Source: Chloroflexota bacterium (GTDB lineage: Bacteria; Chloroflexota; Anaerolineae; JAAEKA01). From it: a stretch of DNA of 64,000 nt. The stretch is from contig JAKQCW010000150.1 of the NCBI GenBank assembly GCA_029558955.1, positions 18,079 to 82,078 of the forward strand. The letters run 5' to 3'. The first letter of the stretch is position 1. The number at the start of each line of letters is the position of its first letter. The position numbers and the translations under genes were made by a program. The notes under the pieces are model-generated. The model was given only the letters and a program-made list of their open reading frames with translations. It did not search any database and had not been told where the DNA came from. Below, piece by piece: positions 1,312 to 50,770 of the stretch.

Positions 1312-1635
1312 GGGCCGCTAGCTCAATGGTAGAGCAAGGGACTTTAAGAATGGAGCCTCTACAGGGTAACTTGTAGAGTGGACGCTGCTATATGCTGGGA
1401 CCCCCTAAAGCTGACGGTACGTTTTCCTGACGTGACAATCTGTCAGATAGATGGGCAATCAGCAGGCAACCTCAGCGATGAGAGAGCCCTCAGAGGCCAT
1501 ACGCAGCGCACCCCGGCGGGCCAGACCCGGGGTGAAGAGATGGTCCAGACCGCAACAGTGTCTGCTGACCTGGCTGGCGAAAGTCAGTGCGGTAGGTTAA
1601 TCCCTAGGTTCAGAGTTCGAGCCTCTGGCGGCTCA
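1312..1635 (+). tRNA. tRNA-Lys (anticodon UUU) gene interrupted in the anticodon loop by a 252-nt intron. Exons are 1312..1344 and 1597..1635. No CCA is encoded.
   Basis: 5' half: GGGCCGC-TA-GCTC-AATGGTA-GAGC-A-AGGGA-CUU. 3' half: UUAA-TCCCT-AGGTT-CAGAG-TTCGAGC-CTCTG-GCGGCTC-A. These give canonical acceptor (one G-U), D, anticodon (AGGGA/TCCCT) and T stems, a 5-nt variable loop and discriminator A. The spliced loop would be CUUUUAA. The D-arm resembles bacterial tRNA-Lys. Confidence 0.7.
1345..1596 (+). ncRNA. Putative group I self-splicing intron (small, ORF-less) inside the tRNA-Lys anticodon loop.
   Basis: The 5' exon ends in U (..ACUU|) and the intron ends in G (..GCGGUAGG|). A GGGU internal guide (..cuacaGGGUaac..) can pair with exon ACUU to form P1 with a U-G wobble at the splice site. 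A P-like segment (gacgCUGCUauaug) is complementary to a Q-like element, gcAAUCAGCAGGca, which matches the group I Q consensus AAUC(C/A)GCAG. P7-like pairing is possible between guGUCUGCUGACC and gaaAGUCAGUgcgg. The length (252 nt) is typical of tRNA group I introns. Confidence 0.55.
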
Positions 1636-4623: not shown

Positions 4624-5550
4624 TTACGCATGATCGAACACCGGCGTGTTCCACGACCGATAGCGTTCCACGTTGCCGCGCACGACGTCGAAGTAGAGGT
4701 TGCGGATGGCGTTGGTGATGGGCCCCATGACTCCCGCGCCCACCGGCCGGCGGTCGACGGCGGTGATGGAGGCAACCTGGACGCCGGTGCCGCAGAAGAA
4801 GAGCTCATCGCAGACGTAGAGCTCGGTGCGGTCGATCTCCCGTTCTTCGACGCGGATCCCCAGGTCGGCCGCGGCCAACTCCATGACGGTGCGCCGGGTG
4901 ATCCCCTCCAGGATGTTGGCCGACACCGGCGGCGTGATCAGTTGGCCATCGCGCACCATGAAGATGTTGGCCGCGCTGCCCTCCGAGGCGTGGCCATACT
5001 CGTCGAGCACGATGGCTTCGTCGTAGCCGTCCATCAATGCCTCAGACTTGACCAGGCTGGAGTTGACGTAGGCGCCGGCGATCTTGCCGCGGGCGGGGAT
5101 GGCGTTGTCGTCCACCCGGCGCCAGGAAGAGACGCACACCGATGCGCCCTCCTCGTTGGCCACGTAGCGGCCAAAGGGGGTGGCAAAGATGGTGACCTCG
5201 TCGATCATGTCGTGCAACAGCACGCCGATCTTGTGATCTGCCTTGTAGGCCAGCGGCCGCACGTACATGTCGTTGCGCTGCCCCTCGCACCTGAGCAGCT
5301 CCACCACGGCAGCGCGCAGTTGCTCGGCGCTGTAGGGCAGGTTCATCAACAGCAGGCTGGCTGAGCTCAGGAAACGCTTGATGTGATCCTCCAGCCGGAA
5401 GATGTAGAGCTGCTCCTGCTGTTCGTTCCAGTAGGCGCGGATGCCGCCGAAGCAGGCAGTGCCGTAGTGCAGCGCGTGGGTCATCACGCTGACTTTGGCT
5501 TGCTCGATGGGCACGATCTGGCCCTGAAAGAAGGCGTAGTTGGTTTGCAT
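4624..5550 (-). CDS. ilvE: Branched-chain amino acid aminotransferase.
   Basis: The 308-aa translation has the class IV aminotransferase pattern (..LHYGTACFGGIRAY.., ..EGSAANIFMV.., ..ITRRTVMELA..). Confidence 0.9.
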   Translation of the reverse strand: MQTNYAFFQGQIVPIEQAKVSVMTHALHYGTACFGGIRAYWNEQQEQLYIFRLEDHIKRFLSSASLLLMNLPYSAEQLRAAVVELLRCEGQRNDMYVRPLAYKADHKIGVLLHDMIDEVTIFATPFGRYVANEEGASVCVSSWRRVDDNAIPARGKIAGAYVNSSLVKSEALMDGYDEAIVLDEYGHASEGSAANIFMVRDGQLITPPVSANILEGITRRTVMELAAADLGIRVEEREIDRTELYVCDELFFCGTGVQVASITAVDRRPVGAGVMGPITNAIRNLYFDVVRGNVERYRSWNTPVFDHA

Positions 5551-5603
5551 GGGAGACCTGGATTTGGGGAATGGTTAATGGGGAATTGGGGAATGGTGAA
5601 CGG

Positions 5604-50365: not shown

Positions 50366-50770
50366 GTCGGTGGTCGGTGGTCGGTGAACGGTGAACGGTG
50401 AACGGTGAACGGTGGTCGGTGGTCGGTGGTCGGTGAACGGTGGTCGGTGGTCGGTGAACGGTGGTCGGTGAACGGTGAACGGTGAACGGTGAACGGTGAA
50501 CGGTGAACGGTGGTCGGTGGTCGGTGAACGGTGAACGGTGGTCGGTGGTCGGTGAACGGTGGTCGGTGAACGGTGAACGGTGGCCGGTGAACGGTGGTCG
50601 GTGAACGGTGAACGGTGGCCGGTGGTCGGTGAACGGTGAACTGTGAATGGTGAATGGCAAACTGCGAATAGTGAACGGTCATCGGTGCAGCGATCACCCT
50701 CCGTTTACCGTTCACCGTTCACCGTTTACCCTCCGCTTACCGTTCACCGTTCACCGTTTACCCTCCACCG
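50366..50770. repeat. Heptanucleotide microsatellite (GGTGAAC/GGTGGTC)n of about 40 units, followed by inverted (GTTCACC)n copies.
   Basis: The direct 7-bp repeats run from 50366 to about 50650. Reverse-complement copies (ccgttcaccgttcaccgtttaccc) lie at 50700..50770. The region is stop-free on the minus strand in all frames, giving HRPPFTV-type translations. Confidence 0.9.

Follow-up and report, generated by a model that had tools for sequence, protein, structure and literature searches.

Group I introns of tRNA genes in bacteria are classically known from tRNA-Leu(UAA), tRNA-fMet, tRNA-Ile(CAU) and also tRNA-Arg(CCU). A preliminary description of the locus studied here had named the same four. 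Williams 2020 (bioRxiv 10.1101/2020.01.27.920355) places the four classical classes in subgroup IC3. The same preprint, in which 5,292 split tRNA genes were mapped, expanded the 4 classes to 21. Its seed alignment includes Mle24.Lys.3Ug (CUU/ca...cagg/) and a Lys.4Ug seed. The preliminary description had supposed that an intron in tRNA-Lys was not described, a view made outdated by the Lys.3Ug class of that preprint. A 2026 paper in mSystems (PMC13011429) puts the number of tRNA group I introns at 333, distributed over 18 phyla, describes PD-(D/E)XK genes in tRNA-fMet and tRNA-Arg(UCU) introns, and cites experimental self-splicing of the cyanobacterial and plastid tRNA-Leu(UAA) intron (Leu.3Ug); tRNA-Lys is unmentioned in its main text. 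A “group I intron” was also proposed in cyanobacterial tRNA-Lys(CUU) (Mohanta 2017; PMC5733544). Its inserts, at 22-49 nt, fall below the length that a group I ribozyme needs, and we therefore leave it out of the prior art.

Here we analyzed a 64-kb stretch of DNA, hereafter the window, from an uncultured Chloroflexota bacterium that is Anaerolineae/Caldilineales-like and has a G+C content of 65%. The window holds a tRNA-Lys(UUU) gene at positions 1312-1635 (+), made of two canonical tRNA halves with 252 nt between them. We consider it very likely that the intervening sequence is an ORF-less group I intron of the Lys.3Ug class, which splits the gene between anticodon positions 34 and 35, is predicted to self-splice, and has lost its endonuclease gene. 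The preliminary description had placed a roughly 252-nt group I-like intron in the anticodon loop of this gene, after an exon U. Its coordinates proved exact, and the group I assignment is borne out by an Rfam match described below.

The 5′ exon (1312-1344, +) contributes the 5′ strand of the acceptor stem, the D arm, the 5′ strand of the anticodon stem (AGGGA), and loop positions C32, U33 and U34; its letters are GGGCCGC-UA-GCUC-AAUGGUA-GAGC-A-AGGGA-CUU. The 3′ exon (1597-1635, +) supplies U35, U36, A37 and A38, the 3′ strand of the anticodon stem (UCCCU), the variable loop, the T arm, the 3′ strand of the acceptor stem, and an A discriminator (UUAA-UCCCU-AGGUU-CAGAG-UUCGAGC-CUCUG-GCGGCUC-A). 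CCA is absent from the 3′ exon and so is not encoded. When joined, the exons form a 72-nt class I tRNA with four intact stems, a class I variable loop, and a 7-nt anticodon loop reading CUUUUAA. ARAGORN labeled the joined exons (CUU|UUAA) as tRNA-Lys(ttt). No other tRNA gene was found within the 64-kb window.

Putative transcription signals flank the gene. Upstream lies a sigma-70-like promoter (1274-1302, +) with a -35 element TTGCCC, a 17-nt spacer, and a TG-extended -10 element TATACT, ending 9 nt 5′ of the tRNA. The promoter scan returned this one site, compared to 0.1 expected from shuffled sequences, and the intron-less orthologues of two relatives, L004 and L129, have a TATACT box equally far upstream. 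Downstream, direct reading of the sequence revealed a terminator-like hairpin with a U-rich tail (1639-1676, +; AAACAGCCCGAGAC-AUCAU-GUCUCGGGCUGUUU), which a simple terminator scan did not call. The same hairpin stands 3′ of the intron-less tRNA gene of L129. In the window it sits between convergent genes, the tRNA (+) and a GT2 glycosyltransferase (-) whose stop is at 1691, and it may terminate both.

Detection of the intron depended on search settings. The preliminary description had suggested searching with the Rfam covariance model for group I introns (RF00028, Intron_gpI). With laxer cmscan filters this model matched the locus at 54.1 bits, above its gathering score of 50. The E-value was 5e-13 for a region of 551 nt and 6e-11 when the whole window was searched. 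It was the sole credible RNA match in the 64 kb under these filters. Elsewhere in the window, a palindromic stretch at 50626-50732 matched the mir-9447 model on both strands with 33 and 30 bits against a gathering score of 67, and it is probably a plain inverted repeat or terminator. With default settings, an Rfam gathering search over the whole window found nothing, the speed filters being the cause, and default ARAGORN likewise returned nothing on the window. With its intron search enabled, ARAGORN reported a single split cloverleaf, labeled Asn(GUU), whose intron measures 252 nt. An unguided minimum free energy fold of the 324 nt recovered the acceptor, D, anticodon and T stems together with P1, P2, P3, P4, P5, P8, P9, P9a and P9b (z = -3.34), and none of 100 shuffles was as stable.

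The intron spans positions 1345-1596 (252 nt, UAAGAAUGG...GCGGUAGG), and all of its elements are given below on the + strand. P1 (1342-1346/1351-1355) is formed by the guide UGGAG at 1351-1355, which pairs with C1342-U1343-U1344 and the first two intron bases across an AGAA loop. Its pairs are C1342-G1355, U1343-A1354, the splice-site wobble U1344·G1353, U1345·G1352, and A1346-U1351. The helix is short at 5 bp, and two neighboring pairs are U·G. The preliminary description had instead taken a GGGU as the guide, which was mistaken, as GGGU sits in the GUAA-type loop of P2. The P2 hairpin itself (1357-1365/1370-1378) has 9 bp and a GUAA tetraloop, replaced by GAAA in most homologues, and an A-U pair of the window is a compensatory G-C in the relative L001.

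The core helices follow. P3 joins CGCUGC (1383-1388) to GCAGCG (1503-1508). P4 pairs UGCUGG (1393-1398) with UCAGCA (1459-1464), and the latter strand lies within AAUCAGCAGG, which the preliminary description had rightly recognized as the Q element. Within P5 (1403-1405/1453-1455) lie a P5a extension (1411-1417/1440-1446) and, distally, a hairpin. A CUGAC/GUCAG pairing had been proposed as P7, but these strands belong to P5a. P7 is formed by GGCCAU (1495-1500) with AUGGUC (1540-1545), which makes a pseudoknot with P3 and corresponds in position to GACUA/UAGUC in the RF00028 consensus. Between P4 and P7 lies the P6 hairpin (1471-1474/1479-1482; CUCA-GCGA-UGAG), and P8 (1510-1516/1527-1533; ACCCCGG/CCGGGGU) has 7 bp, of which the proximal 4 are conserved or covarying while the distal part is variable in length. 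J8/7 (GAAGAG) and the 3′ strand of P7 occupy 1534-1545. P9 (1550-1554/1588-1592) encloses P9a (1557-1562/1567-1571), as found in the minimum free energy fold, and P9b (1574-1578/1583-1587), which is capped by a GAAA tetraloop. The intron ends in the terminal G (omega G) at 1596, which marks the 3′ splice site directly before UUAA. Across the 16 proposed helices, tRNA stems included, 89/89 pairs are standard in the window. The layout is a compact P1-P9 that lacks P2.1 and P7.1/7.2; being shared with the classical classes, it is suggestive, and only suggestive, of subgroup IC3.

We then searched for homologues. Scanning metagenome contigs with a 20-mer covering J8/7 and P7 yielded at least 119 loci, and ARAGORN placed a split tRNA across the match in 95 of the loci listed, 94 of them tRNA-Lys. 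These include at least 88 distinct split tRNA-Lys sequences. Among the matches listed, the tRNA backbones of these genes are diverse in the acceptor, anticodon and T stems, with introns ranging from 225 to 699 nt. Recurrence in so many independent assemblies means that the element is neither a chance occurrence nor a misassembly. The remaining split gene (L169) has the same 20-nt J8/7-P7 core inside a class II tRNA-Leu gene. Its sole junction giving a 7-nt loop and an intron-final G is CUC|...G|AAAA, which yields Leu(CAA) and puts C instead of U at position -1, resembling the Leu.3Cg class that Williams 2020 reports in Proteobacteria. A separate scan of genome contigs with the loose 5′ junction pattern GGACTTTAANNNTNGAGCC (15 specified bases) returned 119 matches, all of them chance matches in coding sequence, and no split tRNAs.

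To quantify conservation of the fold, we aligned 32 representatives that were less than 93% identical using MAFFT. Standard pairs occupied 87.1% of cells, compared to 35-47% when the 3′ partners were slid by 1-3 columns. Pairs changed on both sides numbered 33, versus 17.4±2.1 in shuffles (0/500). In P3, where all cells were paired (100%), two positions covary (GC/CG and GC/AU/UA), and 3/4 pairs of P6 do so as well. Covariation was also present in P8, in P9b (3 pairs changed on both sides), in distal P1, and in the T, acceptor and anticodon stems. The first three pairs of P1 were invariant (32/32), and its fourth pair was C-G in 27 sequences and U·G in 5. P4 was likewise invariant in 32/32 sequences, as were P5, P7 and P9 in this sample, so these helices contribute no support from covariation; the invariance of P7 and J8/7 is uninformative in any case because it was imposed by the search 20-mer. 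P2, P5a, distal P8 and P9a were paired in 59-71% of cells, probably owing to register errors in the alignment, and P5a carries compensatory changes. One homologue (L227:1917-2266(-)) has an extra hairpin of ~35 nt in the P1 loop (alignment columns 37-71), which indicates that L1 tolerates insertions. That the core is conserved with compensatory changes over at least 88 distinct homologues implies selection for folding.

These data bear on whether two tRNA halves could merely flank a chance resemblance to a group I intron, or have been brought together by faulty assembly. The silence of the default Rfam gathering run and of default ARAGORN could be taken that way. Yet the match was highly significant on the whole window once filters were relaxed, over 90 independent contigs from metagenomes share the architecture, as do syntenic loci of relatives, and its helices covary. 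We therefore regard chance or artefact as extremely improbable.

As to which tRNA the intron interrupts, two junctions fit an exon ending in U and an intron ending in G. The first, CU|...AG|GUUAA, lies one base further 5′, between positions 33 and 34, and would produce tRNA-Asn(GUU). The second, CUU|...GG|UUAA, produces tRNA-Lys(UUU). ARAGORN with intron search chose the former for the window and for most homologues, and the alternative product does fold as a cloverleaf. However, exons joined at CUU|UUAA are identical at 72/72 positions to the intron-less tRNA-Lys(UUU) genes of L004 and L129, which occupy the syntenic locus (SurE, aminotransferase IV, hypothetical gene, DUF92, GT2, [tRNA], PMT_2) and read CUUUUAA; their GT2 proteins are 82% and 91% identical to that of the window, respectively. 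The wobble of P1 points to the same junction: it is invariant at U34 (U1344·G1353), whereas U33 pairs with A1354 and so provides no wobble. The last intron base is G in 88/88 distinct homologues among the matches listed, but the base before it can be G, A, C or U. Were the intron moved by one base, the final G would thus be lost in some homologues: four of them have A, C, C or U at this position. The discriminator also fits Lys, as it is A, while G73 belongs to the E. coli identity set for tRNA-Asn and is the discriminator of bacterial tRNA-Asn. Junction errors of this kind by ARAGORN are documented by both Williams 2020 and PMC13011429; the latter reports that ARAGORN and tFind misplace junctions and advises checking them against intron-less homologues. 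Because such a comparison was made here, the junction is decided. We consider the host settled as tRNA-Lys(UUU), with the junction CUU|...G|UUAA, and the Asn reading very unlikely. The spliced loop CUUUUAA, the exon U and the intron-final G of the preliminary description are thus confirmed by the intron-less orthologues and the P1 wobble.

Close relatives of the window displayed four states at this tRNA gene: an intron with an endonuclease gene, an intron with a remnant of it, an ORF-less intron (the window), and no intron. In the first state are L218 (443-1211, +) and L220 (882-1651, -), whose introns of ~695 nt carry a ~140-aa ORF in the P6 loop that matches PF11645 of the PD-(D/E)XK type (E = 3e-17), a family that we take to be linked to I-Ssp6803I. 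Their 5′ exons are the same as that of the window. The 3′ exon of L218 is too, and the T stem of L220 differs by a compensated change. A third split tRNA (L156:134-905, +) also has a PF11645 ORF in its P6 loop (5e-21) in a very different tRNA-Lys backbone (GATCCCG...), which implies that the intron and the endonuclease gene cross host lineages. We consider these ORFs candidate tRNA-Lys-specific homing endonucleases; a phmmer search of the endonuclease ORF against PDB sequences found no match. No endonuclease ORF is present in the window intron, which has the 4-bp P6 hairpin at the ORF site of L218 and L220.

The second state is represented by L001-L003, whose 442-nt intron has lost the middle of the ORF, with ~95 nt left at each end. 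In these relatives, a 108-aa ORF is annotated in public gene calls antisense to the intron (~4992-5318 (-) in L001 and L002). It has no Pfam match and is almost certainly spurious. The intron-less state is found in L129, L126 and L004. In L004, the interval between the intron-less tRNA-Lys and PMT_2 contains, at 4796-5570, an extended series of short, imperfect direct repeats (CTTGTCTACYTGTCTACC, TCTTCCCTCC) that is absent from the window. The distribution of the intron did not track relatedness: going by GT2 identity to the window, it is missing at 91%, present with an ORF remnant at 88%, and missing at 84% and 82%. Homing, decay of the endonuclease and loss of the intron would be expected to leave such a pattern. 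The order of the evolutionary events is put forward provisionally.

How the window intron would splice can be proposed by analogy to its family. The gene would be transcribed from its own promoter, and the intron would fold into the P1-P9 core while the anticodon stem (AGGGA/UCCCU) holds the exons together. The guide UGGAG (1351-1355), positioned on exon CUU and two intron bases, would mark the 5′ splice site through U1344·G1353. A free guanosine bound at P7 would attack after U1344. G1596 would then take the place of the guanosine, and the 3′-OH of U1344 would attack after G1596. Ligation would give a 72-nt tRNA with the loop CUUUUAA, which would then be processed by RNase P, trimmed at its 3′ end and supplied with CCA, since the gene does not encode it. 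The window copy appears to have lost the PD-(D/E)XK gene that relatives carry in the P6 loop. With its endonuclease gene lost, the intron would now be a passenger unable to move, and a working tRNA would depend on its continued splicing. UUU is normally the sole anticodon reading AAA, so splicing would be obligatory if this gene is the only copy.

It is conceivable that the intron no longer splices and the gene is a pseudogene, its function being covered by another tRNA-Lys elsewhere in the genome. The lost homing-endonuclease gene suits a decaying element of this sort, and our view of the genome is a 64-kb window that contains no other tRNA gene. Decay is difficult to reconcile with a fold in which every proposed pair is intact, exons 100% identical to intron-less orthologues, a conserved promoter and terminator, and a core maintained with compensatory changes across the homologues. 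Nor would loss of the gene be readily tolerated where UUU is normally the only anticodon for AAA. We consequently judge a dead relic to be unlikely, and favor an intron that is still capable of splicing.

Where the Lys.3Ug intron came from is a more speculative matter. Both tRNA-Leu(UAA) and tRNA-Lys(UUU) share the C32-U33-U34 context recognized by P1. It is possible, although we hold the idea with considerable doubt, that a tRNA-Leu(UAA)-type intron entered tRNA-Lys(UUU) by reverse splicing or endonuclease-driven ectopic homing, and that it still cycles in uncultured Chloroflexota by means of a putative tRNA-Lys-specific PD-(D/E)XK homing endonuclease. If so, the homing cycle would be represented in all four of its stages by the window and its relatives, which form a single narrow clade.

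The locus exposes a blind spot in genome annotation. An essential tRNA gene escapes default ARAGORN and default Rfam searches, and ARAGORN with intron search gives it the wrong label, Asn(GUU). As a result, genomes of this lineage would look as if tRNA-Lys(UUU) were missing or an additional tRNA-Asn were present, affecting estimates of tRNA complement and completeness. Gene callers compound the problem by putting spurious ORFs on the intron. The relatives constitute a compact natural series for studying intron gain and loss, and they point to a candidate tRNA-Lys-specific homing endonuclease. While the window intron leaves the understanding of how group I introns work unchanged, the window locus and its intron-less orthologues offer a cleanly defined splicing substrate for a class, Lys.3Ug, that rests on computation in one preprint (Williams 2020).

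Among known introns, those of the classical classes resemble the window intron to differing degrees. It is like the Leu.3Ug intron of cyanobacterial and plastid tRNA-Leu(UAA), as in Anabaena/Nostoc PCC 7120, in its insertion site (34/35, after C32-U33-U34), its CUU/GAG pairing in P1 with U34·G, an anticodon stem that closes the intron, a compact P1-P9, and GNRA loops in L2 and L9b. Unlike Leu.3Ug, it resides in a class I tRNA-Lys rather than a class II tRNA-Leu. The two are also clearly dissimilar in J3/4-P4 and P6, where the window has UAUAUGCUGGG/AAUCAGCAGG and Leu.3Ug has AAAYUCRGGGAAA/CAAUCCYGAGCC, and their alignment score was 108.5. The introns of Azoarcus tRNA-Ile(CAU) (Ile2.5Ug) and Agrobacterium tRNA-Arg(CCU) (Arg.5Ug) are small bacterial tRNA introns with the same core topology, but they are inserted after position 36 instead of 34 and scored 63.5 and 92.5 against the window, respectively. 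The Synechocystis tRNA-fMet intron encodes the PD-(D/E)XK enzyme I-Ssp6803I. Relatives of the window (L218, L220 and L156) encode PF11645 proteins, whereas the window intron encodes none.

The closest of the nine seeds compared was Mle24.Lys.3Ug, with a score of 201 versus at most 108.5 for the other eight and 77% identity over 231 aligned bases. Both introns have a tRNA-Lys host, a site after the third base of the anticodon loop (CUU/...g/UUAA), U at position -1, and a final G. The blocks they have in common are UAUAUGCUGGGAC, GGGYAAUCAGCAGGYAA and GGUGAAGAKAURGUCCAGAC; GGGUAAUCAGCAGGUAA and GGUGAAGAUAUAGUCCAGAC are likewise distinctive blocks of both. They differ in the tRNA-Lys backbone, in L2 (GUAA in the window, not GAAA), and in the P5 extension, P6 and P8. 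Judged by the sequence of its junction and its homology to the seed, the window intron belongs to the Lys.3Ug class of Williams 2020. The class itself was therefore already catalogued in the 2020 preprint, and what is new here is a copy without an ORF in a Chloroflexota-like host.
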